NCBI GenBank assembly: GCA_964016885.1 | Contig: OZ024743.1 | Location: 88,412,001-88,476,000, forward strand | DNA length: 64,000 nucleotides | Direction of reading: 5' to 3' | From: Eledone cirrhosa | Lineage: Eukaryota | Part shown: positions 8,951 through 57,690 of the stretch, piece after piece | Position numbering within the stretch: position 1 is the stretch's first letter | Layout of the letters: each line of letters opens with the position of its first letter | Translations under genes and position numbers: made by a program | The notes under the pieces: model-generated | Database searches by the model: none | Told to the model about the DNA's origin: nothing | The model's input: only the letters and a program-made list of their open reading frames with translations

Positions 8951-11900
8951 ATCATCATCATCATCACCGTTTTACGTCCGTTCTTCCACGCTACCATGGG
9001 TTAGACGGGTTGTCCTGTTGTGGGTAGTGTCCGGTCGGTTCACCTTGTCTTGCTCATACGGGAACTGATTCTGGCTTGATTTCTACAGCTGGATGCCCTT
9101 CCTAACACCAACCTCATTTACAGTGAGTGCTGGGTGCTTTTTTTCAGTGGCGCCTACACGTCCACTTCACAGTGTGGGCTGGGTGCTTTTTTGCTGCGGC
9201 ACCTCCACAACCACTTTGCCGTGGGAGGGTGTGGGTGCATATTGTCTATATGCTTCAGCTTCGGCTTGTACCCGTGGGGGGGGGGGGTCTTCTGTGTTAC
9301 TGCGTGACGCCAGAGGTCACGGTCGTGTGTCATTGCCTTTGAGAGGTGTAATTGGGTATGGTCGGCTTTTATCACCTCATCCCAGGTCTTCTTGGGTCTC
9401 CCCACTCCGCGGTTTCCATCGACTTCTAGTCCTCTGCACCTTTTTATGCAGCTGTCATCCTTCATATGCATCACATGTCCATACCAACACAACCGCCTCT
9501 TCTGCACACAGCATTTGATTCCTCTTATGCTTAGTCTCTCTCTCAATTCATTTATGCTTTGCCGTTCGCGTATATTACTATTACACATCCATCGGGGCAT
9601 GCAGGCTTTGTTTCTTTCTAATCTACGCAAGTCTTCCACATTCAGCGCCCAGGTCTCACTACCATGTAACATTGCTGTTCGTATACACGCATCATACAGT
9701 CTGCCTTTCATTTTGAGGGAAAAGCCTTTTGCAGCTAACAGTGGCAGTAGCTCCCTGAACTTCTTCCATCCCGTTCTTGTTATTGTACTTTCCGAACACC
9801 CACCTCCGGTGCTAATTCAGTAACCTAGGGAGCAGAAGCTGTCTACTGTTTCTACAGAGCCCTCCCAGAGTTTAGTGGTACTTGTTTCCTGTGGCTGTTT
9901 GCTGCTTGCTTTCCCAGCACAGCTGCTATATGTGAAGCCTACATTCTAAGTTAAGCTTCCTGAGATCCCACTACGTCTCTTGTGTACCCATTGTTTGCAT
10001 TTGTGGCAGAGAATGGAGTTCCTACCTACACCTTTCCTACATACTGAGCAAGGCCATTCCCTGAGGGGATCTGGGTTCTGTTTTCTCGTCTACTTACAAG
10101 GACCTTAGTCTTTGTCAGGTTGACTTTAAGACCCTTTCTTTCTAGTCCCTGCTTCCAAGTTTGGTATTTCTTCTCTAGTTCTACCATAGATTCAGCTATA
10201 AGTGTGAGGTCATCTGCATACAGGAGTTCCCATGGGCATCTGGTCTTAAACTCCTCTGTTATTGCCTGCAGGACTATGATGAACAGGAGAGGGCTAAGAA
10301 CAGAGCCCTGCTGGACACCAACCTGTACGCTAAATTCCTCGCTATAGTCATTGCTAATCCTAACTTTGCTGACTTCTCCCCTATACATGGCTTGTACAAC
10401 TTTCACAAGCCATTCATCTACTCCTAGTTTTCTAAGAGCCCACCAGGTTATAGCATGGGGAACTCTGTCAAAGACTTTCTCGAGATCGACGAATGCCAGG
10501 TAGAGTGGCTTACTTTTAGCTAGGTACTTTTCCTGTAACTGCCTCACAAGGAAGAGGGCATCAGTGGTGCCTCTTCCTGGTACAAACCCAAATTGCATCT
10601 CATCTAGTTTCACCCAGTCCCTAATCAACTGTGCTATAACTCTTTCTGTTACTTTCATGACCTGGTGCATCAGCTTTATACCTCTATAGTTTCCTTTATC
10701 TAGTGCATCACCTTTACCTTTGTAGCAGTTGACAATGATGCTATTGCACCAATCCTTTGGTATGACACCCTCTAGTATTACCTGGTTAACAATACATGTG
10801 GTTATGGTGTGACCTACCGACCCAGATGCCTTCAGCATCTCGGCAGCTATACCCAAAGGACCGGTTGCCTTCCCTGTCTTCATACCTTTGATTGCCTTAC
10901 TTACTATTCTGCTGCTGACTTGTAGTGCTGGCCCCTCTATAGGGTCTACTTGGGGTAGGGTCTCTTCTTCCCATGCATCTCCTCATTTAGTAATCTATCA
11001 TAATGGCTCTTCCATGCATCTTTCTTCTCAGCACTTGTGAGGGAAAGCTCACCTTTATCATTCCGGATACACTTCTCTCCAATGACATCACAATTCTCTC
11101 TGACACACTGCCTCGCAATCTTGAACACCTCCTGTTTCTGGTCCTCGCGTTGTAAAACATGCTTGAATTTTCTATCCTCTGCTTCCCTCCTAGCTAAGTA
11201 TACTAGTCGCCTAGCTTCCCTCCTGGTCTCTATGTAATGTACCCTGCTACCCCCGTTCTTCCATTCTTTCCATGCCTGTCTCTTGGCCTTAACTGCCTCA
11301 TCTACCTTATTGTTCCACCACCAAGTCACTCTCCTCCTGCTTGTGGTCTTTCTCCAGCCACAGATCTCATCCGTCGCCTTTAGTAAGTTATTTTTTATCA
11401 ACTCCCAGTGCTCTTCTACATTGAATGTCTCTATCTGTTCTTCTTTACTGTTATAGGCATCGAGTAAAATATCTTTAAGTCTGTTACTGGCTGAGGGGTC
11501 TTTCAGCTTCCAGATCTTTCTTCTCCAAGTTGGCTTCTGTTTCCAGGTTCGTCTAGTTCTGACCGTGAGGTCACTGACAACTAAGCTATGTTGGGAGGTA
11601 TATTCCTCACTAGGGAAGGCTTTTGTGTTTACGACTGTCCATCTGTCACGTCCTCTGATGAAGATAAAATCTATCTGACTAGAATGCTCCCCTGATCTAT
11701 AGGTCATCAGGTCGTTGTCGGGTTTTTTTGAAGTTTGTGTTACATATCAACATGTCATTGGTATCACAGAATTCTAGAAGCCTGAATCCTTCTTCATTTC
11801 TTGTGCCAACCCCATGGCCTCCATGGACTCTATAGAAGCCATCACGGTTTACTTATGTGTCCGTTAAAATCTCCTGCAATGATTAGGAAGTCATTGTCGT

Positions 11901-12320
11901 TTGTTAGAGCAGTAGTGGGCATTAGAGACTCGTTAATCCTATCCTTAAGTTCGTCTGGCAACTCCGATTGGGGTGCGTAAGCTGATATTATTGTGGTAAT
12001 TGTTTCATTCAGGACTAGTCTGAGTTTAATGATTCTTGCATTCACCCTGTTCACTGAGATTACCTTATCTACCCATTTGTCAGCTAGTAGGATACCTACA
12101 CCACCGATCCCATTGTCATTTCCCACCCAGAAAAATTTGTAGCACTGACTTTTTCCTACACAGCATACATCAATTTCCTTTCGCTCTAGAATCTCTACGA
12201 TTTCTCCTGCTCTTCGTTTCATTGTGCTTACATTGATGGTTCCAACTCGGAGTTTTGGGCATTTGTCAACATTCGTGGGAAAGGGTCGATTTTTGCATGG
12301 GTGTGTGTATGCTTCTTGTC
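8951..12320 (-). mobile_element. Near full-length, disrupted RTE LINE (subfamily A, same family as 26068-29088)
   Basis: Collinear ORF pieces 11842-12399 (APE N-term: LRVGTINV, ISAYAPQ, AGDFNGH), 10946-11707, 10026-10883 (RT: FVDLEK, QGSVLSPLLF, YADD) and 9154-9711, separated by frameshifts and stops. Long 3' UTR and (GAT)n tail at ~8951. Confidence 0.95.
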
Positions 12321-12399
12321 TCTGAATTGAAGCTTCACATGGGTATATATATACACACACACACACACATATATTTATATACATATATATATATATCAA

Positions 12400-12650
12400 C
12401 AGTCAATCGACAAGATCCCAGACCTCATTCACTTAACGAGTGGGGTGGAGCTAGTCAAACCAGACTGAGGAAACAATGTTTCCACTGGTATTTTCAATTA
12501 CTAATACTGTCGGTCACAAACCCAGGCAGAGTGAACAACATGAAATAAAATGTCTTGCTCAAGGACATAAAGCATTGCCCAGTCTGCGAATCAAAATCAC
12601 AACCTAACGATTGCAAATCCAATTCTCAAACCACTCAGCCACATGCCTTC
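12400..12650 (-). mobile_element. tRNA-headed SINE with CORE-like segment (family S2)
   Basis: Minus strand has an A-box-like TGGCTGAGTGG followed by TGTCCTTGAGCAAGACATTTTATTTCA. Related copies at ~24645-24870, ~34316-34645 and ~57960-58065. Confidence 0.6.
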
Positions 12651-13708
12651 ACAATATATATATATACATACATACATATATATATATATATACACACACA
12701 CACATATATACATACAGCCACCCCATGATCCAATATGGTTATTAAATGATATCAAATGATTCCTGTCCATGAAGCTTTTTATAGTGAGGAAAGACCTTGT
12801 ACTGGACCAGTCACCCACACTGAGCAACAACAGCTATAATCTGAAAAGAAGAACAGATCAACATTTGTTACTATTGAACTGCAAGTTTTACATCACAGTT
12901 TTCTTCTTCTAGAACAAGGGTTCTCAACCCATTTCGGCCAAACTTTTGCCCCTCGAAATCACGAAACGCCTCCCTACCCTATTTTTCCATTTTTCAATAT
13001 ACTACTGATTTTGATATCAGTAGATTACTGGGCCAAATCAAGTTATGTTAGAATCTTTAAAAAATACTCGTACAAATTAAATACAAAAAGGTTTCAGTCC
13101 AAAACAAAAGCAAGCTATTTCAAATTCTATATTTTTGAAAAAAAAAAAAGATTTGATCTCAGTCGAAAAAGCTTTTTTTTTTTAAATTCTATATTTGACT
13201 GTTAGCTGTTGTAATATTTTGAGTGGATAGACAATTCTACAATTCAAACTGTAAAGTCAAAATACAAAAGATGCAAAATATGAAGAATTTCTTACCTTTC
13301 TCTGAAATCACAAACTCAGGGGGAAAATAGTACCTTGCAAAATAAAATACTTAGTAGCAACGAATGAATTGAGAAGCTTGGTGACAGTGAGAAAGCCATA
13401 TCTGTATCCCTTATATATATACATAGATAGATACACACACACATAAACGCGCACACACACACACACAAACTGTGTGTGTGCCTTGGTTTTTGTACAGAAA
13501 GAATTTTGTCTCCAGTTTTTATTGCCATGTCAAAGGCCATTGCTCTTTTCAACAACGCCATATATATATATATATATATATATATAAATGAAGAGAGAAA
13601 GAGGGAGGGACAGAGAGAGTAAGAAATGTGTGTGTATGTGTGTGTTTGGTACACAGCTATCTATCTCCAACAGGGGGCTCAAACATGGTAGACCAGACTG
13701 AAAAAAGA

Positions 13709-13771
<63 letters not shown>

Positions 13772-13772
<1 letters not shown>

Positions 13773-15105
13773 AGAGTACAACAGATGCCTTCTTCTTGGT
13801 GAGACAATTACAAGAGAGGTTCTTAGAGAAAAATAAGCCACTATACTTAGCCTTTGTTGACCTAGAGAAGGCCTTTGATAGGGTACCCCGATCTGTCATC
13901 TGGTGGTCCCTAAGGAAACTAGGTGTTGAGGAATGGCTTGTGAGGACAGTGCAAACTTTGTACAGAGGTACTGTCAGTAAAGTCAGGGTAGGAATGGAGT
14001 TTAGTGAGGAATTCCAGATACAAGTAGGAGTACATCACGGTTCGGTCCTCAGCCCGCTCTTGTTCATTATAGTCCTCTAAGCCATAACAGAGGAGTTTAA
14101 GACTGGCTGTCCATAGGAACTTCTCTATGCTGACGATCTGGTTCTTATAGCAGAATCAGTAGAGGAGCTAGAGAATAAATTCTGGCTATGGAAACAGCAG
14201 TTGGAAGCAAGAGGACTGAGAGTGAACCTAGCTAAGACGAAAGTGTTGATGAGTAGAAAAGAGGACAAAACTCTGATTCCGTCAGGGAAATGGCCATGTT
14301 CGATATGCAGAAAAGGAACTGGCATAAATTCTATAAAATGCACACAATGCAGATCCTGGGTACACAAGAGATGTAGTGGGATAGCAGGCAAACTAACAGG
14401 TAGGGAGAAATACGTATGCAGTAGATGTACAGGGAAATTAGACAGTAGATGTCGCATTGATAGACACATTTTTCAAATGCAGGCAGGTGCTATAGAAGTG
14501 GTGGATAGCTTCCGGTACCTAAGAGATCAGATTAGCATGGGGGGGGGGGGTTCCGAGGCCATAGTATCTAGAATAAGGACGGGTTGGAAGAAGTTTAGGG
14601 AGTTGCTTCCTCTGCTGACAAAGAAGGGTTTCTCCCTGCGTACGAAAGGCCGGTTATATGATGCCTGTGTGAGGAGCGCGATGTTGCATGGTAGTGAGAC
14701 ATGGACAGCAACTGCAGAGGATATGCGACGGCTGGAGAGAAATGAGGCAAGCATGCTCCGTTGGATGTGCAATGTCAATGTGCGTGAACGACCCAGCATG
14801 AATGTGTTGAGAGAGATAGAATGTAGTGTGCGAGAGAGGAGACTGAGGTGGTATGGACATATGATGCGCATGGAGGATGACCGATGGGTGAAGAAGTGCC
14901 AGGAAATGCCTGTTGAAGGAAGACGTGGTAGAAGTAGACCACAAAAAACATGGGTGGAGGTGGTGAGAACAGACCTCAGATCGCTGAAGCTCACGGGGGA
15001 GATGATGAAGGACCGTGACAAGTGGAGAGATGCTATGCTGAATAAGACCCGTCCCACCCTTGCAAACAGGGAAAAGTGGATGTAAAATGATCATGATGAT
15101 GATTA
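13772..15105 (+). mobile_element. 5'-truncated RTE LINE (subfamily B, short 3' end)
   Basis: RT motifs STTDAFFLVRQLQE, FVDLEKAFD, GSVLSPLLF and YADD (with two in-frame stops near 14080 and 14115), a PHD-like finger, and a C-terminus running directly into a (GAT)n tail. The 5' end abuts (TA)n. Confidence 0.95.
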
Positions 15106-15165: not shown

Positions 15166-15176
15166 TATATATATAT

Positions 15177-16096
15177 ATCCTTACATACTTAAATATAAAT
15201 GCATGTATATATATATATACAAATGTATAAATGCATAGCTATATACATATATATTAATTCAAAATATTACAAAAATAGAACTTCTTGTGATCAAGTATAT
15301 TTTATTATACATATTTCAGAGGTACTGAGCTAACTTCAACAGTACGTCCTCATCAGATAAAATAAGATGATGTATGACATACCCTGACATAGTAGATGGT
15401 TAAGATCCAGTCGTGGTAGTGAGTAAGATATGACAAAACTCAATATTTATATACCTTAAGATTGAGACATGAAAAAACTTACATATAATACAGAGGGTGC
15501 GTGTAAGGACATAACTGTTAGAGATTCAAATAATTATTGAACTAATTCTTTGATTTATTCATTGAACCTTGTTTAACCTTTAAATATATATATATATAAA
15601 TCTACATACATACATATATACATACATATATTTACGTATGTATATAGCTATGCATTTATACATTTGTATATATACATACATTTATATGCATGTATATATA
15701 CAAATGTATAAATGCATAAATATATACATACGTAAATGTATGAATGTATATATGTATGTATGTAGATTTATATATATATACAATATATATATATAAATCT
15801 ACATACATCATATATACATACATACATTTACGTATGTATATAGCTATGCATTTATACATTTGTATATATACATACATTTATATGCATGTATATATACAAA
15901 TGTATAAATGCATAAATATATACATACGTAAATGTATGAATGTATATATGTATGTATGTAGATTTATATATATATACAATATATATATATAAATCTACAT
16001 ACATACATATATACATACATACATTTACGTATGTATATAACTATGCATTTATACATTTGTATATATACATGCATTTATATTTAAGTGTGTAAGGAT
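15177..16096. repeat. AT-rich structure bounded by ~70 bp inverted repeats, with internal tandem palindromes (~196 bp unit, ~2.5 copies)
   Basis: ATCCTTACATACTTAAATATAAATGCATG… (15177) is inverted at …CATGCATTTATATTTAAGTGTGTAAGGAT (16096). Units starting AAATCTACATACAT at ~15598, ~15796 and ~15991 each fold back on ATGTATGTAGATTT (third unit partial). Confidence 0.8.
15298..15364 (-). ncRNA. Minimal type I hammerhead ribozyme motif (Penelope-like/retrozyme type)
   Basis: Minus strand: UAUUUUAU-CUGAUGA-[GGA c GUACUG…CAGUAC c UCU]-GAAA-UAUGUAU-A-AUAAAAUA. It has a perfect 8 bp stem I, a paired stem II, a short quasi-palindromic stem III and an AUA cleavage triplet. Confidence 0.85.
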
Positions 16097-23730: not shown

Positions 23731-24139
23731 TATGATCTGATGTTGAATGTAAAGTAGAAATTATGACATCAACATGACACAGTGGTCACAGTCAGAATAC
23801 ATTTGACCATAGGTCTGCTGAGTTAAGTTTGATTGGCAGCTAAACAACAACAGCAACCTTGCCTGGCTCTACATAGACAGCTGTTGAGGTTATGCTTGGA
23901 AGGGTTTAGAATAGAGTAATAAGATGTATGTATAGTAGTAATGTATAAAGACAAGGTTGTTTGTAATTACTATATGATTAGGTCTAATCTAAGTAATTAG
24001 ATATATAAAGATCTGTGTAAAGATGGTTAGCTTTAATCTAAGCTTTTGATGCTTAGATTAGATATAAGTAGAGTCTGTGTGAAGACTAGATGGGTATAAT
24101 TTTTTCATTGTAGATCTCTCTATATAATCTTCATTGATG

Positions 24140-24535
24140 GGGTCACAACAAAAAGCACAGTTACCTGTGTAAGGTGGTAGTGCTGGTTCCACAACAAAAA
24201 GCATCCAGTTCACTCTGTAAGGTGCTAGTGTTGGAGCCACAACAAAAAGCACAGTCACTTGTGTAAGGTGGTGGTGCTGGTTCCATGACAAAAAGCACTT
24301 CACCCGGTAAGGTAAGGTGGTAGTGCTGGTGCCATGACAAAAAGCACCCAGTCCCCTGTGTAAGGTGCTAGTGCTGGAGTCTCAACAAAAAGCACCTTGT
24401 CTCCTGTGTAAAATGGTAGTGCTGGGTCTACGACAAAAAGCACCCAGTTCACCTGGTAAGGTGGTAGTGTTGGAGTCATGATAAAATACTCCCAGTTGGC
24501 ATTAGGAAGGACATCCAGCTGTAGAAACCATGCCA
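24140..24535 (+). repeat. Tandem expansion (~48 bp unit, ~7-8 copies) of the SINE/RTE-3'UTR subunit
   Basis: Repeats of CAAAAAGCACCCAGT…TGTAAGGTGSTAGTGCTGG, followed by TTGGCATTAGGAAGGACATCCAGCTGTAGAAACC. Confidence 0.8.
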
Positions 24536-25845: not shown

Positions 25846-26067
25846 TTGTCAAATCATTCAAGAAATCTGGAATTTCAAATGCACATTAGATGACAGATAA
25901 GACAATATATCTAAAGCCAAATTCACCTCGTGGACGAGAATGCAAGCACTCCTCCTTGTTTCGGCCCAGGATGGCTAACATAACCCCATCCCCCCCCCCC
26001 CCCCCCCCCCCCCGCGCCCCACCGCTCCCACCCTCCAAACGCAATCCAAAACTTCAGAGTTGGTACC

Positions 26068-29000
26068 ATGAATGTAGGCACCTTAAAGGGTCGCTCTAAC
26101 GAGGTTGTAGAAATGCTTGAACGTAAGGAGGTCGATGTTTGTTGTATTCAAGAGACCAGGTGGAGGGGAGGGTCGGCTAGATTCATCGTGGGTAAAGAGC
26201 GATGCTATAAGCTTTTCTGGGTGGGAAATGACAATGGGTTGGGTGGGGTAGGAATCATGGTAGCAGAAAAGTGGGCAGATAAGATAATAGACGTAAATAG
26301 AGTGAACGACAGAATAATTAAAATAAGACTTGTCCTCAATAAAACTACGGTGACAGTAATATCTGCGTACGCACCCCAATCCGGACTGCCCCGCGCTATA
26401 AAAGACAGATTCTACGAGACACTGATGCTCGCTACCTCCCAAATAACCGACAGTGACTATATAGTTATTGCAGGCGACCTAAATGGTCACGTTGGACAAC
26501 ATTGTGACGGCTATGACGGAATCCATGGAGGCTATGGGTTCGGTACTAGAAATGAGGAAGGCTCCAGAATCCTGGAATTCTGCGACGCAAATAACTTAAC
26601 TATCTGTAACACTAACTTCAAAAAACGAGACAATCACTTGATCACCTATAGATCGGGGGAACACACAAGCCAGGTAGATTATATCCTTACCAGAAGACGT
26701 GACAGAGTGTCTGTTGTTAACACTAAATCCCACCCCCATGAAGAATTCACCTCCCAACATAGACTGATAATTAGCGACCTCATAGTCAGGACGAGACGTA
26801 CTAGACAGCGAAAGAGGACTATCCTCAGGAGAAAAATATGGAAGCTAAAGGACCCCATAGCCAGAAATAAATTTCAAAGCAAATTACTTGACGCTTTCGA
26901 CAGTAAGGAAGAGCAATTAGAGTCGTATAATATAGAGGAACAGTGGGAATTCCTGAGAGCAAACCTGCTGACGGCGGCAGACGAAGTCTGTGGCTGGAGC
27001 AGGCCTGTAGGTAGGAGGAGAGTAACATGGTGGTGGAACAGTAAGGTGGAGGAGTCAATTAAGGCCAAAAAGCAGGCTTGGAAAGTATGGCGGGATGGGG
27101 GAAGTAGAGAAGACTATCAAGTGGCCAGGAGGGAAGCTAGGAGACAAGTGTACTTCGCAAGAAGGGAAGCAGAGGAAAGAAAGTTCAAGCATGTTCTACA
27201 ACGTGAGGACCAAAAACGTGAGGTGTTCAGGATTGCCAGGCAATGTGTCAAGGAAAACCGTGATATTGTCGGGGAGAAGTGTGTACTTAACGATGATGGC
27301 ATACTTGCCATCACCGACGCTGATAAGAAGGTAGCTTGGAAGTGTCACTACGAAAGGCTTCTAAATGAGGAGAACAAATGGGAGAAAGACAGTCTCCCCC
27401 AGATCGATCCAATAGAGGGACCAGCAGTGTTAGTTGAAGGTAGTATAATAAGTAAGGCAATCAAAGATATGAAGACGGGTAAGGCGGCTGGGCCTTCGGA
27501 AATAGTTGCTGAGATGCTGAAGGCATCTGGTTCGGTGGGACACACCATGGTCACCCGGATAGTTAACCAAGTCGTACAGAATGGGGTTGTTCCGAAGGAA
27601 TGGCGTAGCAGCATCATCGTTAACTGCTATAAGGGAAAAGGAGATGCCCTAGATAGGAGTAACTATAGAGGCATTAAATTAATCGACCAGGTCATGAAGG
27701 TCACGGAAAAAGTAATAGCGCAACTAATCAGAGAGAGAATTGATCTAGATGAAATGCAGTTCGGGTTTGTGTCAGGCAAAAGTACCACAGACGCTCTTTT
27801 CATTGTACGACAACTACAGGAGAAGTACCTAGCTAAAAGTAAACCCCTATACTTAGCTTTTGTCGACTTGGAGAAAGCCTTCGACAGAGTCCCCCGTTCC
27901 ATTATCTGGTGGTCTCTTAGAAAACTAGGTGTTGACGAATGGCTTGTGAGAGCTATACAAGCCATGTATAAAGAAACAGTCAGTAAGGTTAGAATTAACA
28001 ACGAATATAGTGAAGAGTTTAGCGTAAAAGTTGGTGTCCATCAGGGCTCTGTACTTAGCCCCCTACTATTTATTATTGCCCTTCAGGCTATAACAGAGGA
28101 GTTCAAGACCGGCTGCCCATGGGAACTCCTATACGCAGATGATCTAACGCTCATAGCTGAATCAATGACCGAACTAGAGAAGAAATTCCAAACGTGGAAG
28201 CACGGCCTAGAATCAAAAGGCCTTAAAATTAACCTGGCTAAGACTAAAGTTCTAGTTTGTAGGAAAGAAAATAAGGCGGCGGTCCCATCGGGGAAATGGC
28301 CATGCTCAGTGTGTAGGAAAGGCGTAGGTAGAAACTCCATTTTATGTCCCAAATGCAAAGTATGGGTGCATAAAAGATGTAGTGGGATCACAGGTAAGCT
28401 AACTAAGAACATAGATTTTACATGTGGCCGGTGCTCTGGTGCAATAAGTAGCAGCAAGTGCCCACAAAATACTAGCTCCTTCAACTGCGCAGAGGGTTCT
28501 ATAGAAATAGTGGACAGCTTCCGTTATCTGGGTGACAAAATCAGCAGTGGGGGAGGGTGCTCTGAAAGTACAGTAGCTAGAGTCAGAACTGGATGGAAAA
28601 AGTTCAGAGAGCTTATACCACTATTAGCCGCTAGAGGGTTCTCCCTAAAAATGAAAGGCAGGTTATACGATGCCTGCATACGAACAGCAATGCTGCATGG
28701 CAGTGAGACCTGGGCATTGTGTGCAGAGGATATACGCAGACTAGAGAGGAACGAAGCTTGCATGCTCCGCTGGATGTGCAATAGTAATATACGTGAACGG
28801 CAAAGCATAAACGAACTAAGGAAAAAATTAGAAATAAGAGGGATCAGATGTTGTTTACTCGAGAGAAGGCTACGTTGGTACGGTCACGTGATGCGCATGA
28901 AAGACGACAGCTGTATAACAAAGTGCAGGGCAATAAAGATAGACGGTAGCCACGGAGTAGGCAGACCCAGAAAAACATGGGACGAGCTGATAAATTCCGA

Positions 29001-29088
29001 CCTCACACGCTTACACCTCTCCAAGACAATGTCACTGGACCGAGACCTTTGGCGGTACTCAGTAATAGAGAAGACCCGCCTTACCTAA
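26068..29088 (+). CDS. RTE LINE polyprotein: APE endonuclease, reverse transcriptase and PHD-like zinc finger
   Basis: APE motifs (T)MNVGTL, CIQETRW, ISAYAPQ, AGDLNGH, QVDYIL and SQHRLI. RT motifs KGKGD…NYRGIKL, QFGF, FVDLEKAFD, GVHQGSVLSPLLF, LYADD, GLKINLAKTKV and FRYLG. RTE C-terminus RRLRWYGHVMR…GRPRKTW. Confidence 0.97.
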   Translation: MNVGTLKGRSNEVVEMLERKEVDVCCIQETRWRGGSARFIVGKERCYKLFWVGNDNGLGGVGIMVAEKWADKIIDVNRVNDRIIKIRLVLNKTTVTVISAYAPQSGLPRAIKDRFYETLMLATSQITDSDYIVIAGDLNGHVGQHCDGYDGIHGGYGFGTRNEEGSRILEFCDANNLTICNTNFKKRDNHLITYRSGEHTSQVDYILTRRRDRVSVVNTKSHPHEEFTSQHRLIISDLIVRTRRTRQRKRTILRRKIWKLKDPIARNKFQSKLLDAFDSKEEQLESYNIEEQWEFLRANLLTAADEVCGWSRPVGRRRVTWWWNSKVEESIKAKKQAWKVWRDGGSREDYQVARREARRQVYFARREAEERKFKHVLQREDQKREVFRIARQCVKENRDIVGEKCVLNDDGILAITDADKKVAWKCHYERLLNEENKWEKDSLPQIDPIEGPAVLVEGSIISKAIKDMKTGKAAGPSEIVAEMLKASGSVGHTMVTRIVNQVVQNGVVPKEWRSSIIVNCYKGKGDALDRSNYRGIKLIDQVMKVTEKVIAQLIRERIDLDEMQFGFVSGKSTTDALFIVRQLQEKYLAKSKPLYLAFVDLEKAFDRVPRSIIWWSLRKLGVDEWLVRAIQAMYKETVSKVRINNEYSEEFSVKVGVHQGSVLSPLLFIIALQAITEEFKTGCPWELLYADDLTLIAESMTELEKKFQTWKHGLESKGLKINLAKTKVLVCRKENKAAVPSGKWPCSVCRKGVGRNSILCPKCKVWVHKRCSGITGKLTKNIDFTCGRCSGAISSSKCPQNTSSFNCAEGSIEIVDSFRYLGDKISSGGGCSESTVARVRTGWKKFRELIPLLAARGFSLKMKGRLYDACIRTAMLHGSETWALCAEDIRRLERNEACMLRWMCNSNIRERQSINELRKKLEIRGIRCCLLERRLRWYGHVMRMKDDSCITKCRAIKIDGSHGVGRPRKTWDELINSDLTRLHLSKTMSLDRDLWRYSVIEKTRLT

Positions 29089-29488: not shown

Positions 29489-30464
29489 TATGCGAGCAAG
29501 ACAACCACTCTTGCCTCAAGTGGGAAAACCCCCGTCCAAACCCATGCAAGCGTGGAACACGGACGCTAAACCTGATGATGATGATGATGATGATGATCTA
29601 TGAGGTGACATGGCTAAAGAAGAAATGGATGATATGTTATCTCAAACTATGGACAGCAATAATGAAGATGATCCTTACGAAGATATCATTCATCCTGGGG
29701 ATTATAAGAGTTATTCTGTGCTGAAAATGATAACGAGTGTGATTTTAATGAACATTGATGTTTGAAATGTTAAAATTGTACCATGTACATTCATTTGGGT
29801 CTCAAATAACCCCTCCCCCCCCAACCGGACTTATTAAATTTTGCTAATCTATCTCCGGCGAAATTTTATTTTAAATGGTAATTAATTTTCTTTAGACATT
29901 TAAAAATATTATACATGATAAAAAAAGAACATTACAAGAAATCTCATACGTTATAAAATAAATAGGATGAGTTGGGGTCTCAATATGTAAACTAAATGAC
30001 TAATTCTGGTTTGTAAAAAAAACCAAGGGAGATAACCTAGAAAAATTACCGATTTCACCTTCCCCCGCTTATTCCACCCCCATCCCCTATTATTTGGGTA
30101 CTTATAATTTAAATCTCTATTAGATTTCTTCGTTTTTTTGTATGCATAAATAAAAGCTAATTCATTTTTGTTTTATTGTCATTTCTTATTTTGATGTTTT
30201 TTTAATATTTTATGGCTTTAAGCTGCATTAAATTTATTAAAAGAATTTGTTAAAGAAAATGAGAGTTCTTAATCCAACCACGAAGAAGAAGAAAACGTTT
30301 TTGGTGGAGATTGTTGTTGGCACAGAGAATGGTGTTGTGTTTCTACATCTTTTATCAATTTTGGTATTTAATAGCTTAAACTTTTTCATACCAACCTGCC
30401 TGAAACTGCCTCTAGCTTTATGATATAAATCTGTTCTTTTTATAGTGTTCATGTTCCCGTAATT

Positions 30465-30743
30465 GGTGCAGCTAGTCGTTGGGGTGCCACTCTAGATGTG
30501 CCACTGCTGCAGCCAATCGTTGGGGTGGGACTCTAGATGTGCCACTGGTACAGCCAGTCATTGAGGTGGGACTCTAAATGTGCCACTGGTACAGCCAGTC
30601 ATTGAGGTGGGACTCTAGATGTGCCACTGGTACAGCCAGTCATTCGAGTGCCATTCAAGATGTGCCACTGGTACAGCCAGTCATTGGAGTGGCACTCTAG
30701 ATGTTCCACTGGTAAAGCAAGTCGTTGAGGTGCCACTCTAGAT
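30465..30743. repeat. Minisatellite, 41 bp unit, ~6.7 copies
   Basis: GGTACAGCCAGTCATTGAGGTGGGACTCTAGATGTGCCACT repeated head-to-tail. Confidence 0.9.
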
Positions 30744-31456
30744 GCTTTCATAGACAGTTGTCTTTATTCTCTGTCATGCGTAGAAGGGTCTCAGATTTGT
30801 AACCAGTCCAGTCTTTGATGTTGTCAGACCAGGATGTTCTTTATCTCTCTTTTCTTCACCCTCCCTCAACTGTGCCCTGAAGGATAGTTTTGGACAAAGA
30901 GTTGTGGTGGGATATAAGACCATGTCAGCTCTTCCCACCCAATGGGGATATTTGCTTTAGCCTTTGGGGTGGGTGAGAGATGTCTTCTCTTGTGAAAATG
31001 GGTATAGTTTTCATTATGTAAAATCTCTCCATTTTGCCTCATTTCGTTCCATTTGGGGGCACTTTTTGTCACGGTACTCCCCGTTTGGGTTTGTAGAGAT
31101 TGGCGGTCTGCCATTATATTTGTTAACTTGCTGCCTGACAAAGTTGTTTGTTTTGTGCACCATGTGTGGTATATGTAGCATCTTTCTGAAGTGTTCATAC
31201 TTTTCTTAAAACCTTTCATTATAATTTCCCGCCAAGGTTAACTTTGCCTTTCATCCTTACGGGGTCGATAAAATAAATTACCAGTAATACACTGGGTAAT
31301 TGCTGGCCTTGTGCCTAACGTAGAAACAATTATAATTATATGTAGAAATACTTTATAAATAATACTCTGAACATGAGCTTAATAACAAAAAAGTAGATTA
31401 TTTTATTAGTTAGATTCCTTCAAATTCTTGATTATTTTCAAAATTAATTGAAACAT

Positions 31457-31881: not shown

Positions 31882-32699
31882 AATTGAAACATATAGGAAG
31901 TGTTTTCATTAGAAATATGGTCATGAAAGGGTTAAGTTGGATTGAATTAATTAAAAATATAAATACCACACTAATATACCAACCCTATGGTGTGAGGAAC
32001 AATAACCACAAGTATGAAAATAATGTAGTTGGAGAGTTGTAATGTGAAACATAACAACAGAAGATATCAGTTATATGCATAGTATTACAGTATGTTATCG
32101 GTTATATACAATAATTATGAGATGTAAATTTATTTTGTTAAGCTATCTATTTAATGTGACAGATACAAGTAAAGGAGCAAGTGTAAATATTTATAAGAGC
32201 CATGTAGTCATACTTATAGCTGTCGTTATGTAGTAGGATACGGTATATTTACTGTAATTCATTGATTCCTTTTATTCATTTAGAGATCATTTGGACTTCT
32301 ACGATTGATACAGCATTTTGGCTTCTAAGGTGAATTTCAGTCCCTAAAACATAGTATTCATATAATAGTTGACCCCATAAACTTAACCTTAAAAAATGTT
32401 CAAAAGATTTGAGTTTTACATGAGTATATAGTGTAAAATGATTATATATATATATGATTGTTATACTATGTGATAATTCTCCCTCCTAAAAATTCCTCAC
32501 TGGTAGTGGTCAATTCAGGAATTCGTCCTTTCATTGAGGGGGTCCCTTCATAAGCCGATAGCCTCAGGGCCCTGGTGCTCTTTGGCTGCATACCAATCTA
32601 TCAAACTGTACAGTCAGGACTTTGAAGAAAAAATTAGGCATACTTTGTCTATTTGCTCTTTACATTCATTTATAATTGTTATATATATATATATATATA

Positions 32700-34315
32700 T
32701 AGCCTTTGACAGAGTCCCACGCCCCATTATCTGGTGGGCTCTCAGAAAACTAGGTGTTGATGAATGGCTTGTGAGAGCTATACAAGCCATGTATAAAGAA
32801 ACAGTCAGCAAGGTTAGAATTAACAACGAATATAGTGAAGAGTTTAGCGTAAAAGTTGGTATTCATCAGGGCTCCGTCCTTAGCCCCCTCCTATTTATTA
32901 TCACCCTCCAAGCTATAACGGAGGAGTTCCCGGCTGCCCATGGGAACTTCTATACACAGATGATCTAAGGCTCATAGCCGAATCAATGGCTGAACTAGAG
33001 AAGAAATTCCAAACATGGAAGCATGGCCTAGAATCAAAAGGCCTTAAAATTAACTTGTCTAAGACTAAAGTTCTATGTAGGAAGGAGAATAGGGCACTGG
33101 TCCCATCTGGGAAATGGCCATGCTCAGTGTGTAGGAAAGGAGTAGGCAGAAACTCCATTTTATGTCCCAAATGCAAAGTATGGGTGCATAAAAGATGTAG
33201 TGGGATCACAGGTAAGCTAACTAAGAATATAGATTTTATATGTGGCCAGTGCTCTGGTGCAATAAGTAGCAGAATACTAGTTCATTCCATTGCCCACAGA
33301 ATACTAGTTCATTCCATTGCCCAGATGGTTCTATAGAAATAGTGGACACCTTCCGTTACCTGGGTGACAAAATCAGCAGTGGTGGAGGGTGCTCCGAAAG
33401 TACTGTAGCTAAAGTCAGAATGGGATGGAAAAAGTTCAGAGAGCTTATACCACTATTGGCCACTAAGGGTTTCTCTCTAAAAATGAAAGGCAGGCTGTAT
33501 GATGCCTGCATACGAACAGCAATGTTACATGGCAGTGAGACCTGGGCATTGTGTGCAGAGGATCTACGCAGACTGGAGAGGAACGAAGCTTGCATGCTCC
33601 ATTGGATATGTAATAGTAATATACGCGAACAGCAAAGCATAAATGAACTAAGTGAGAAATTAGGAATAAGAGAGATCAGATGCTGTTTACTCGAGAGAAG
33701 ACTACGTTGGTATGGTCATGTGATGCGCATGAAAGACGACGGGTGTATAAAAAAGTGCAGGGCGATCAAAATAGACGGTAGCTACGGAGTAGGCAGACCC
33801 AGAAAAACCTGGGATGATTTGATAAATTCCGACCTCACACACTTACACCTCTACAAGACAATGTCACTGGACCGAGATCTTTGGCACTACGCAGTAATAC
33901 AGAAGACCCGTCTTGCCTAAGTACAAAGCGAAACCTAGTCAGTAGGCACTTCTTAACCAAAATACACCCCCGTCCCACTACCCCTATCCCCACCGCCATT
34001 TACACCACCCCTTTCGATGTAAAGCTGTGTTGGTACCACAACATTCAGTCCTAAATAAATGAGGTCGTGTAGGTGTCATGACAAAAAAAAAAAACACACA
34101 GTCCACGCTGTAATGTGGCCGTGTAGGTAACATGGTAAAAACCTCCCAGTCCACACTGTAAACGTGGTTGGTGTTAGGAAGGGCATCCAGCCGTAGAAAA
34201 CCCACCAGACAGTCCCGAGCAAGACATCCAATCTTGCCTCAAGTGGGACAATTCCCATCCAGACTCATGCTAGCATGGAAGATGGACGTTAAACGACGAT
34301 GATGATGATGATGAT
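32700..34315 (+). mobile_element. 5'-truncated RTE LINE (subfamily A), frameshifted
   Basis: Close similarity to 27877-29597 (ORF pieces 32534-32968, 32986-33336, 33342-33920), long 3' UTR and (GAT)n tail. The 5' end abuts (TA)n. Small tandem duplication at ~33271-33325. Confidence 0.95.
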
Positions 34316-37517: not shown

Positions 37518-39025
37518 CACGTGTGGACATGTGATTTGTTGTAATAAATAAACTTTTATCTACTCATTACCAACATTTAATAACGATATCATCTACAAAA
37601 ACAAACAAACAAATGAATGATATAATGATTATGTATTTTCATGAAAGAGCTAACGTTAGAAGCTAATAAAGCTTTGAGCTTTTATAACTGTAGGTCATAT
37701 AAGAACATGGTTATACAAGGATAATGCAATGAAGTCAATTCATTTATTGCAGATCATAAAACTGCGAATCTTTCATTAATTTTCAAGACACGACCCAAGT
37801 TTAGTTTTGAACCGGAAAAATCGATAGCCAGTCAGTCCGTAATATTTCACCAGCTTTGCTATTATCAGCTATTTCAAACTGCCAACATCCAGTGTTGATA
37901 TGCACACTTGGCAGAAGCACTTTAACTACACATATGATACAAGAATAAAAAGAACAAAGTAGAAGGGAAAAAAGAAGTAACTTTATTCCTTTACGACCTT
38001 CTCTCTCTTGCTTACCGCCATTGTTGGCATTAAAGACTGCCATATTAAAGACACATTGATGTAAATATTGACATTAGAACAGTGTACGAAATAAAAGGAG
38101 AAATTATAAGCAATGAATGAATGGTAACTGTAACAACGTAGGCGATACAACGTATCTTACAGATTTCTTCACATCTTTTCTGGCATTTAAGCTTTTATTG
38201 TGGAATTGAAATGTAATTTATATGAAAATAAGAACGTTTTAAATAAAATGCCTTTAATGTTTAACGGCAGTTTGTTCAAGACAAATGTTGAAGTCATACG
38301 GTGCTTTTTGTAAACCTTTGCTATTGAGGAAACAATGCCGGCTACTTGTATTACACACTTTTGTTTGTTGAGGGTTTTTTCTTCTTTTATAAAGCAGATG
38401 TCGTCGTTGTTAAAATTTTACCATTGTGTATATAAATAAGTCTCTCCTTGGAATGTTTCCAGTGGCTTTCATCAGATATACTGAAACTTAATATCCCAGG
38501 GAAAGTTGGGAATGGAATATGTGCGAGTCGTTTCTTTTTTAATTACATTAGATAAGTAAGGTGAACCCACTGAAACAGATGATTGATATGCGTGTCTATA
38601 TACACACACATCCACGCCCACATATTTTTAAACAAATCTGTTTAGTGAAGGAGGGAAGAGCGATGGCCATGGCTCTTTTCAGGTCTTCTGCGATTGAGAG
38701 AAGAGAGGGAGGAGGGTAGCCTCAAACTGGAGACTAGATCCGAATCCTTGCAACAGAAATAAGCTCAACTAAAGGGACCCAATAAATAGATGGTGGTCGT
38801 ATTAAACTAGGCGTCGGATTCAGTCAACCCCCAATAAAACACACACACGTATATATATATATATATATATATATATTTAAATCTACTGTGATTTAAAAAT
38901 ATCCGACACTAATTTGCATAATAGTATAAATAAATTTATAACCCCACTATCCGGGAGCTTCCAACAGAAATGGTCGCATTCTTTAAGGGTATGTCAATAT
39001 TTATTTATAAAACTGATCTATATTA

Positions 39026-39090
39026 TATTTTATCTGATGAAAGCACACCATAATTTAACTTGGTGTCCTGGAAATATGTATAATGAAATA
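39026..39090 (+). ncRNA. Minimal type I hammerhead ribozyme motif, near-intact
   Basis: UAUUUUAU-CUGAUGA-[a AG c ACACCA…UGGUGU c CU g]-GAAA-UAUGUAU-A-AUGAAAUA. Stem I pairs with one G:U; the pair closing stem II is A.G. It lies in a ~250 bp segment flanked on both sides by (TA)n. Confidence 0.75.
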
Positions 39091-42256: not shown

Positions 42257-42318
42257 TATTCTATTATAATATATTTCAAGGGTACCAAAGCTTTGGTACG
42301 CTTTCATCAGATAAAATA
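42257..42318 (-). ncRNA. Minimal type I hammerhead ribozyme motif
   Basis: Minus strand: UAUUUUAU-CUGAUGA-[AAG c GUACCA…UGGUAC c CUU]-GAAA-UAUAUUAU-A-AUAGAAUA. All core residues and stems are present. Confidence 0.82.
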
Positions 42319-42348: not shown

Positions 42349-42409
42349 TATTTTATCTGATGAAAGCATACCAAGGCTTTGGTACCCTGGAAATATATAT
42401 AATAGAATA
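42349..42409 (+). ncRNA. Minimal type I hammerhead ribozyme motif, near-intact
   Basis: UAUUUUAU-CUGAUGA-[aAGcaUACCA…UGGUAccCUg]-GAAA-UAUAUAU-A-AUAGAAUA, with a palindromic stem III and A.G at the base of stem II. Confidence 0.75.
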
Positions 42410-56629: not shown

Positions 56630-57690
56630 TCATCATCAAAACCAACAGAGGTCCATTCATTCTACAGATAGTGTGGGATGTGATGAGATAGACAAACTGG
56701 TCAACAGACATTTTGAAACCAATGGAGGTTCATTTCATCCAACTGAAAGTGTGAGAACATGGTGATATACACCCACAGGTAAACAGACAGACATTGATAA
56801 AACTAACAGAGGTCCATTACGTTTTTCTGAGAGTGTGGGATATAGTGAGATAGACCCACTGGTCAACAGATACACAGACACTCATCATATTCTACTGATA
56901 GTGTGTGATATAGTGAGATAGACCCACTGGTCAACAGATACACAGACACTCATCATATTCTACTGATAGTGTGGGATATAGTGAGATAGACCCACTGGTC
57001 AACAGATACACAAACACTCATCATATTCTACTGATAGTGTGGGATATAGTGAGATAGACCCACTGGTCAACAGATACACAAACACTCATCATATTCTACT
57101 GATAGTGTGGGATATAGTGAGATAGACCCACTGGTCAACAGATACACAGACACTCATCATATTCTACTGATAGTGTGGGATATAGTGAGATAGACCCACT
57201 GGTCAACAGATACACAAACACTCATCATATTCTACTGATAGTGTGTGATATAGTGAGATAGACCCACTGGTCAACAGATACACAGACACTCATCATATTC
57301 TACTGATAGTGTGGGATATAGTGAGATAGACCCACTGGTCAACAGATACACAAACATTCATCATATTCTACTGATAGTGTGGGATATAGTGAGATAGACC
57401 CACTGGTCAACAGATACACAGACACTCATCATATTCTACTGATAGTGTGGGATATAGTCAGATAGACCCACTGGTCAAGAGACAGGCATCATTGAAACCA
57501 ATGGAGGTCCATTCCATTCTACTGAGAGTGTGTGATGTTATGAGATAGACAGATGGTCAACAGACACACAGACACTCATCATCAAAATCAATGGAAGTCC
57601 ATTTCATTCTACTGATAGAATGGGATATAGTGAGATAGACTCATTGGTCAACACAGATCATTGAAGCCAACAAAGGCCCATTTCATTCAA
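56630..57690. repeat. Minisatellite: homogeneous 68 bp core (~9.5 copies, 56829-57477) with diverged longer units at the edges
   Basis: Unit GATAGTGTGGGATATAGTGAGATAGACCCACTGGTCAACAGATACACARACACTCATCATATTCTACT, with no unique spacers. Confidence 0.95.

Follow-up and report, generated by a model that had tools for sequence, protein, structure and literature searches.

A type I hammerhead motif in the end repeat of a very abundant, likely Hydra-clade Penelope-like retrotransposon of Eledone cirrhosa

An initial annotation of the window, the 64-kb stretch of Eledone cirrhosa DNA analysed here, described a hammerhead ribozyme on the minus strand at 15298-15364 and called it best-preserved. The locus raises the question of whether this 67-nt motif is a genuine hammerhead, what kind of sequence carries it and whether it is likely to cut. 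The annotation had reported a complete core (CUGAnGA, GAAA, UH) on the minus strand, which was verified position by position as CUGAUGA/GAAA/UA: the C3-A9 box CUGAUGA lies at 15350-15356, the GAAA box at 15314-15317, followed by UAUGUA, U16.1 (15307) and A17 (15306), so that the CUGANGA and GAAA boxes and a NUH triplet are all present. The 5′ arm of helix I, UAUUUUAU (15357-15364), forms eight A-U pairs with its 3′ arm, AUAAAAUA (15298-15305), and this is the perfect 8 bp stem I that had been claimed. Helix II (15318-15349) is a 32-nt hairpin of 10 positions with a 12-nt loop, a G.U at 10.1-11.1 and a C.C mismatch at position 4 (15346/15321). Helix III is represented by the 8-mer AUAUGUAU (15307-15314, from A15.1 to U16.1), which is self-complementary with two G.U pairs, quasi-palindromic as the annotation had it, and is the predicted dimer interface. 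Cleavage is predicted from the sequence 3′ of A17, between 15306 and 15305, with AUA as the NUH triplet; the annotation placed the cut 3′ of A15306, which agrees with this layout. Helix I closes the 5′ and 3′ ends and helix II is a hairpin, i.e. the type I layout, which is also seen in the pair counts of 69 copies described below.

The core pattern by itself has nine matches in the window against a shuffle mean of 4.97, and nine was reached in 8 of 100 shuffles. A descriptor with helix I of at least 8 bp and helix II of at least 3 bp has two matches in the window and none in 200 dinucleotide shuffles. Two further minus-strand CUGAUGA...GAAA matches, at 38456-38475 and 679-720, have no similarity to the family loci; the first has a short helix II-like stretch and no helix I and is probably a chance match or a very old copy. 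The folding z-score of the 67-mer is −0.76, i.e. not better than shuffles, and Rfam returned no hammerhead match for the motif, either at the gathering threshold or among the 98 matches at E ≤ 10. Helix I consists exclusively of A-U pairs and the 10.1-11.1 pair is G.U instead of the canonical G-C; taken together with the z-score and the Rfam result, this argues against easy ribozyme activity.

The motif is present in very many copies. The exact 67-mer occurs letter for letter 269 times in the 3.0-Gb genome, a family pattern (helix I arm, core and GAAAUAU, all exact) 30,764 times and the pattern of a sister family with helix III AUGCGCAU 18,781 times, with a control count of 0 in each case. The two family patterns together put no fewer than 49,545 hammerhead motifs into a single genome, which is a lower bound because the patterns require an intact core, and for the same reason they are uninformative on core conservation. 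Four family copies lie within the window. Besides the one at 15298-15364, family comparison places a copy of another subfamily, with A.G at 10.1-11.1, at 39026-39090 (plus strand), and an inverted, head-to-head pair is formed by 42257-42318 (minus strand, with an extra base in helix III) and 42349-42409 (plus strand, again A.G at 10.1-11.1). The copy at 15298-15364 is without a nearby same-strand partner, the sole other minus-strand family copy in the window being 27 kb off. It equals the majority sequence of its subfamily, with no differences inside the 67-mer. Since the other three have A.G at 10.1-11.1 or the extra base in helix III, the label ‘best-preserved’ is apt among the four copies of the window but not genome-wide, given 269 identical copies. 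In the segment 42190-42645 the head-to-head hammerhead pair is accompanied by a duplicated stretch of the junction and one more inverted piece of tail, which makes it a compact example of the inverted insertions of the family.

Base pairing was counted with an end-anchored script in 69 distinct copies chosen by the core pattern (a MAFFT alignment misplaced the 3′ strand of helix II); by inspection these copies stem from about six subfamilies, so the counts are not independent events. Pairs 1-3 of helix II are kept in 65, 68 and 68 of the 69 copies, with swaps between subfamilies such as G-C/A-U and A-U/G-C, and two-sided changes between subfamilies occur at pairs 2, 3, 5, 6 and 9. We discarded a register that inserts a base after A9 (pairs 1-3 kept in 66, 37 and 0 copies, versus 65-68 of 69 without the insertion). 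Position 4 of helix II is unpaired in every one of the 69 copies (C.C in 64, C.U in 4, U.C in 1) and is C.U in all 13 sister-family copies; a near-invariant C thus sits in a pyrimidine mismatch among covarying pairs. The 10.1-11.1 pair is G.U in 37 copies, A-U in 27 and G-C in one. Each helix I pair is kept in 66-69 of the 69 copies, and the variation there is mostly one-sided, from A-U to G.U. For the usual geometry of a loop 1-loop 2 contact, helix II looks too long. Some subfamilies are predicted to form a distal helix I past an internal loop; no loop 1-loop 2 contact was identified. As far as sequence can establish it, we regard the minus strand of 15298-15364 as confirmed to be a genuine type I hammerhead motif.

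The annotation had judged stem III too short to be stable in a monomer, and the calculation bears this out: closing a 2-bp helix III is predicted to cost 3.5 kcal/mol. Counted with A15.1 and U16.1, helix III is self-complementary in 66 of the 69 copies (AUAUGUAU in 45, AUAUAUAU in 18, AUGCGCAU in 2 and AUGUAUAU in 1). The predicted self-duplex of AUAUGUAU is the weakest of those folded (−2.2 kcal/mol), that of AUAUAUAU reaches −3.2 and that of AUGCGCAU −10.5 kcal/mol. A model in which two hammerheads would pair through helix III gains support from this natural covariation, with self-complementarity in AUAUAUAU, AUAUGUAU and AUGCGCAU alike. The suggestion of dimeric activation made from the window copy is strengthened by the persistence of self-complementarity through four base changes in the sister family, and it agrees with published hammerheads of Penelope-like elements (PLEs).

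Folding with the native flanks suggests that the window copy would be held in an inactive conformation: four core bases are predicted to be paired at a probability of ~0.99 and helix I at ~0. In the minimum free energy fold the stretch at 15366-15386 (minus strand), just upstream, pairs both to the core and to the 5′ strand of helix II, and in the 15270-15400 transcript that had been proposed as an assay construct the core is likewise predicted to be sequestered by upstream sequence. This off fold appears in just three of nine folded copies, and we rejected a conserved ‘anti-helix II’ switch as a family-wide feature.

The sequence shared upstream of the hammerhead varies by copy from ~170 nt to more than 4 kb and reveals the element to which the motif belongs. 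Three long copies (L101, L102 and L104) are colinear at 92-96% identity. L104 carries a 750-aa stop-free frame on the hammerhead strand, ~2 kb upstream of the hammerhead, with the motifs DKT, YRDD, CNCRNRPD (followed by F, or by C in L102) and VYKC..YIG; close to the N-terminus the frame is disrupted. At 97% identity, the window copy matches both the 3′ end of the ORF-bearing L104 and the pLTR of L110. The hammerhead, a tail and an ATG form one continuous stretch in L109 and L110 and run into the ORF at its start, and it is this continuity that defines the pLTR. The unit read from sequence is accordingly pLTR - ORF (RT, then GIY-YIG) - ~2 kb 3′ UTR - pLTR. An intact master of the window subfamily was not seen: the ORF of L104 is broken and the tail-to-ORF junction is matched by just four copies.

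Homologues of the L104 ORF number 189 at E ≤ 0.001 (of 8000 scored candidates). An alignment of the query with 59 of the 120 listed hits (60 sequences) has DK[TS] in all 60 and [AS]DKG in none, the last Cys of CxCX5C in 59, and invariant RT aspartates, CxC and GIY-YIG residues; His and Cys residues in the C-terminal domain are invariant as well. CxCX5C is complete in L102 and in the sister-family ORF of L183, and its last Cys is substituted in L104. Pfam found no family in either ORF (the L104 and L183 frames), and across the 60 aligned members it recognised RVT_1 in only two and GIY-YIG in one; searching PDB sequences with the ORF yielded nothing of use. The AlphaFold model of the ORF has a pLDDT of 82, and telomerase RTs occupy seven of the top eight Foldseek rows.

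In the sister family the RT-GIY-YIG frame is intact at 821 aa (L183:2128-4590, G000:C1 ~1.139-1.142 Mb) and 48% identical to the L104 frame, and five units of this family stand in tandem with a period of ~3.66 kb (L185-L189, G000:C6 ~38.071-38.086 Mb). All 40 scored copies are 100% identical at the ORF start, and the family looks very young and recently active. The distance from cut site to ATG is exactly 212 nt in both families.

Two candidates for the ORF of the hammerhead element were discarded. The GIY-YIG ORF beside the hammerhead in L058 and L063 is part of another PLE family, itself very abundant, that has inserted into the same (TA)n (the subfamily hammerhead lies downstream of such an ORF at just 1 of 30 loci), and the ORF beside L012 is likewise that of a neighbouring element. 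The third family (L063:3380-6900, G000:C2 ~21.123-21.127 Mb) is 34% identical to the L104 frame and gave 64,465 first-look candidates for its endonuclease region. Where CUGANGA would stand, its pLTR has a CAGAAGA...GAAA motif that may be a hammerhead, either diverged or dead. In L003 (1829-2525, plus strand) a frame encoding a C2H2 zinc-finger array adjoins a family copy.

Seen against this element, the insertion in the window is a 5′-truncated, 340-bp copy between two (TA)n-rich target flanks, on the left at 15170-15254 and on the right at 15581-16080, the latter including a 196-bp tandem repeat. Its main part, at 15251-15535 on the minus strand, is the 3′ end of the element (3′ UTR/pLTR) with a short internal deletion near 15508, and ends ~52-55 nt past the cut site at the first of two fixed 3′ ends. 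Next to it, at 15540-15588, lies a tail fragment on the plus strand, which is 98% identical to L110 in the opposite orientation and ends at the second fixed 3′ end, ~150 nt past the cut site. Near and far end thus lie on opposite strands. Inverted tail pieces are also present at other family copies, and contigs of run X1, a run whose kind is not known and which possibly comes from the same source, contain eight distinct joints of body to inverted tail (run X5, a single low-depth contig, was left out). In 61 distinct copies the first (TA)4 run past the cut site comes at ~50 nt in 34, at 55-60 nt in 2 and at 145-160 nt in 19, and there is none within 260 nt in the remaining 6; a run thus lies no more than 165 nt from the cut site in 55 of the 61, 53 of these at two points. 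The tail is ~97 nt in the window family and ~90 nt in the sister family and is longer than the 30-40 bp expected of PLEs. A hairpin, RCUC-loop-GAGYGCU, occurs twice per family, at +61 and +158 past the cut site in L110 and L109 and at +50 and +140 in the sister family (L187), each time ~10 nt beyond a fixed 3′ end; L063, of the third family, has one such hairpin ahead of its ATG as well. We infer that the hairpin is a putative protein-binding handle that sets the start points of reverse transcription.

The surroundings of the insertion contain other repeats. A stop-free frame of 1034 aa that has motifs resembling those of an endonuclease and an RT, presumably an RTE-type LINE, extends over 25984-29088 (plus strand), and broken copies of it lie at 9154-12402 (minus), 13592-15085 (plus) and 32507-33920 (plus). 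The second of these copies stops a short way to the left of the hammerhead insertion and lies on the strand opposite to it. Minisatellites are found at 56827-57482 (68 bp, 9.6 copies), 30464-30744 (41 bp, 6.9 copies) and 24138-24486 (48 bp, 7.3 copies). On the minus strand a donor-like GUAUGU lies upstream of helix I (15378-15383), and a pyrimidine-rich AG lies ~20 nt before the ATG in L110. That the two might bound a 5′-UTR intron enclosing the hammerhead is a weak idea; GUAUGU is absent from the sister family.

A single ORF with a telomerase-like RT and, C-terminally, a GIY-YIG, found in L104 and L183, is the arrangement of the EN+ Penelope-like elements, and the partial-tandem pLTRs, the inverted 5′-truncated copies and the optional tail are Penelope-like traits too. 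Craig et al. (2021; PMC8557442) define the Hydra clade of PLEs and include in it Hydra-1_Obim, which has its own hammerhead. The marks that their account gives for the clade recur here: GIY-YIG C-terminal to the RT, DKT in place of DKG, a CxCX5C linker, insertion into (TA)n, a type I hammerhead near the 3′ end and inverted 5′-truncated copies. Their hammerhead table also has non-G-C pairs at the base of helix II, A-U and G.U included. A further mark named for the clade is an endonuclease that lacks the CCHH motif; in the present family the C-terminal domain contains invariant His and Cys residues. The unit is longer, ~4.6 kb in L104 and 3.66 kb in the sister family, whereas Hydra elements are described there as mostly <3 kb. 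Helix II has 10-15 positions with a C.Y mismatch (~3-7 in the Hydra-clade hammerheads of PMC8557442), helix III is an 8-nt self-complement where theirs has 3-4 bp and a loop of 1-3 nt, and all hammerheads listed in that paper, Hydra-1_Obim included, differ in sequence from the window motif. The element likely belongs to the Hydra clade, an assignment made from motifs. A literature search found no description of this family (Repbase and Dfam, outside the search, may hold it), and we regard it as a new family whose element and ribozyme are both of known kinds.

The nearest published ribozymes in layout are the minimal PLE hammerheads of Cervera and De la Peña (2014; PMC4209133), reported as pLTR hammerheads with a palindromic helix III, no activity as monomers and low activity as dimers. 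They share with the present motif the pLTR location, the long helix II, the palindromic and unstable helix III and the predicted, weak activation by dimerization, and are likewise found mostly as solo truncated copies, with opposite-strand pairs 100-700 bp apart. Their consensus, as given there, has an extra base after A9 and G10.1-C11.1, whereas the present family has the register without insertion and an R-U pair; helix I is 8 bp here and 4-5 bp there. The Poseidon element PAc of Anolis (Frangieh et al., 2024; PMC11167929), for which protein-assisted cleavage, two internal RT starts and an uncut RNA substrate are reported, also has its tail set by two internal start points past the hammerhead, an AT-rich target and an uncleaved template. 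Its ORF starts inside the hammerhead and its tail is 30-40 nt, whereas here the ATG lies 212 nt past the cut site and the tail of ~90-97 nt comes with a conserved hairpin after each end.

Decay was measured in loci chosen by their upstream flanks only, sixty in number, which gave 52 distinct copies including that of the window. Substitutions were found at 7 of 619 core sites (1.1%), and in the 3′ flank 24 of 2218 (1.1%) were rare substitutions, or 41 (1.9%) with shared ones counted; with seven core changes in best-scoring and hence young copies, this comparison has low power. The core is intact in 42 of the 52 copies and the 67-mer identical in 17. The core decays about like neutral DNA, so that the ‘best-preserved’ state of the window copy reflects its youth. 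The cut site is crossed by all 52 copies, of which 30, judged by eye, terminate at the near end and 22 reach into the tail. Among 30 sister-family copies containing the ORF start (five of them from one tandem array), 19 extend upstream through the cut site and 11 begin at scattered points 12-142 nt downstream of it. No pile-up of 5′ ends was found at the cut site in these 30 (none begins there, the nearest at −11 and +12). With copies crossing the site and no starts at it, it follows that reverse transcription used templates that were uncut or rejoined. Uncut templates would fit a ribozyme that is off by default and equally one that hardly cuts in vivo. Neutral decay, run-through copies and the absence of starts at the cut site point to cutting that is weak or regulated.

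The reading that we favour, at a probability of about 0.8, is that the type I hammerhead is part of the pLTR of a very abundant, likely Hydra-clade PLE, that the truncated copy in the window is likely inert and that cutting would take place only with a second hammerhead or the element protein. The initial annotation was right about a hammerhead with a weak helix III and overlooked that it is one of tens of thousands of copies of a retrotransposon end repeat. By this reading the element protein would cut (TA)n and prime reverse transcription on both sides at two start points, from an uncleaved RNA template; two-sided priming at two internal starts is taken from what is shown in vitro for PAc of the lizard (PMC11167929). 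The hammerhead would be mostly off as a monomer and be switched on via the self-complementary helix III, either within tandem transcripts or within a protein-RNA dimer, when it would trim element RNA out of longer transcripts, and selection would work in master elements rather than in scattered copies. A bolder form of this proposal, possible if doubtful, is a distinct switchable subtype of hammerhead in which the C.Y mismatch and the sequence-fixed A-U helix I would serve as a docking or protein site, the ribozyme would stay off until two RNPs pair via helix III and the duplicated hairpin would be the handle by which the protein sets its start points.

The most serious competitor, which we consider unlikely, keeps the hammerhead fold for a structural or protein-binding role in the retrotransposon RNA, with negligible cleavage in vivo. 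The lack of copies beginning at the cut site (0 of 30) speaks for it, as does the conservation of helix I in sequence, beyond pairing, between families whose proteins are 48% identical; for the lizard element, Frangieh et al. (2024; PMC11167929) describe hammerhead mutants without effect on in vitro insertion and no RNA-seq ends at the site. Yet the catalytic boxes and a cleavable NUH are common to both families, the self-complement of helix III has been rebuilt with different bases, which is hard to explain without selection for an active dimer, and the lizard PLE hammerhead is reported in the same paper to cleave with protein. An origin by chance, as a short core pattern in AT-rich repeat DNA, would suit the near-chance frequency of the core pattern by itself, the z-score of −0.76 and the lack of an Rfam match, but is refuted by the full descriptor (0 in 200 shuffles), the two-sided covariation of helix II and the 212-nt spacing from cut site to ORF start that is fixed in two families; we assign it a negligible probability.

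With ~340 bp, a type I hammerhead and a very high copy number, the window copy could also be taken for a non-autonomous retrozyme monomer that spreads via small circular RNAs, the more so as animal retrozymes are said to derive from PLE pLTRs (bioRxiv 10.64898/2026.07.22.740005). The animal non-LTR retrozymes described there and in PMC7229834 do share the type I hammerhead, a weak palindromic helix III and copy numbers in the tens of thousands (126,247 motifs are reported for axolotl). However, such retrozymes are short non-coding tandem repeats, whereas the present element codes for protein and no head-to-tail array lies over the motif. Moreover, the 5′ ends of family copies vary from ~170 nt to >4 kb, reaching the RT-EN ORF, and the two ends of the window copy point in opposite directions; a retrozyme origin is very improbable. 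Hardly credible, too, is that the host has co-opted this copy to cleave a host transcript as an active monomeric ribozyme. Its core is indeed intact, as is helix I, but youth alone predicts as much, with an identical 67-mer in 17 of the 52 flank-selected copies and core decay equal to flank decay, and the unstable helix III and the predicted fold in native flanks, with helix I at a probability of ~0 and the core paired elsewhere, are against a working monomer.

The single copy in the window matters little and the family modestly. The copied RNAs, uncut as read from the ends of the copies, bear on the role of hammerheads in Penelope-like elements, and the paired hairpins offer a lead on how such elements pick internal start sites. 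On the bolder proposal, the sister family, which looks very young, would be a ready system in which to find out what the hammerheads of Penelope elements do.
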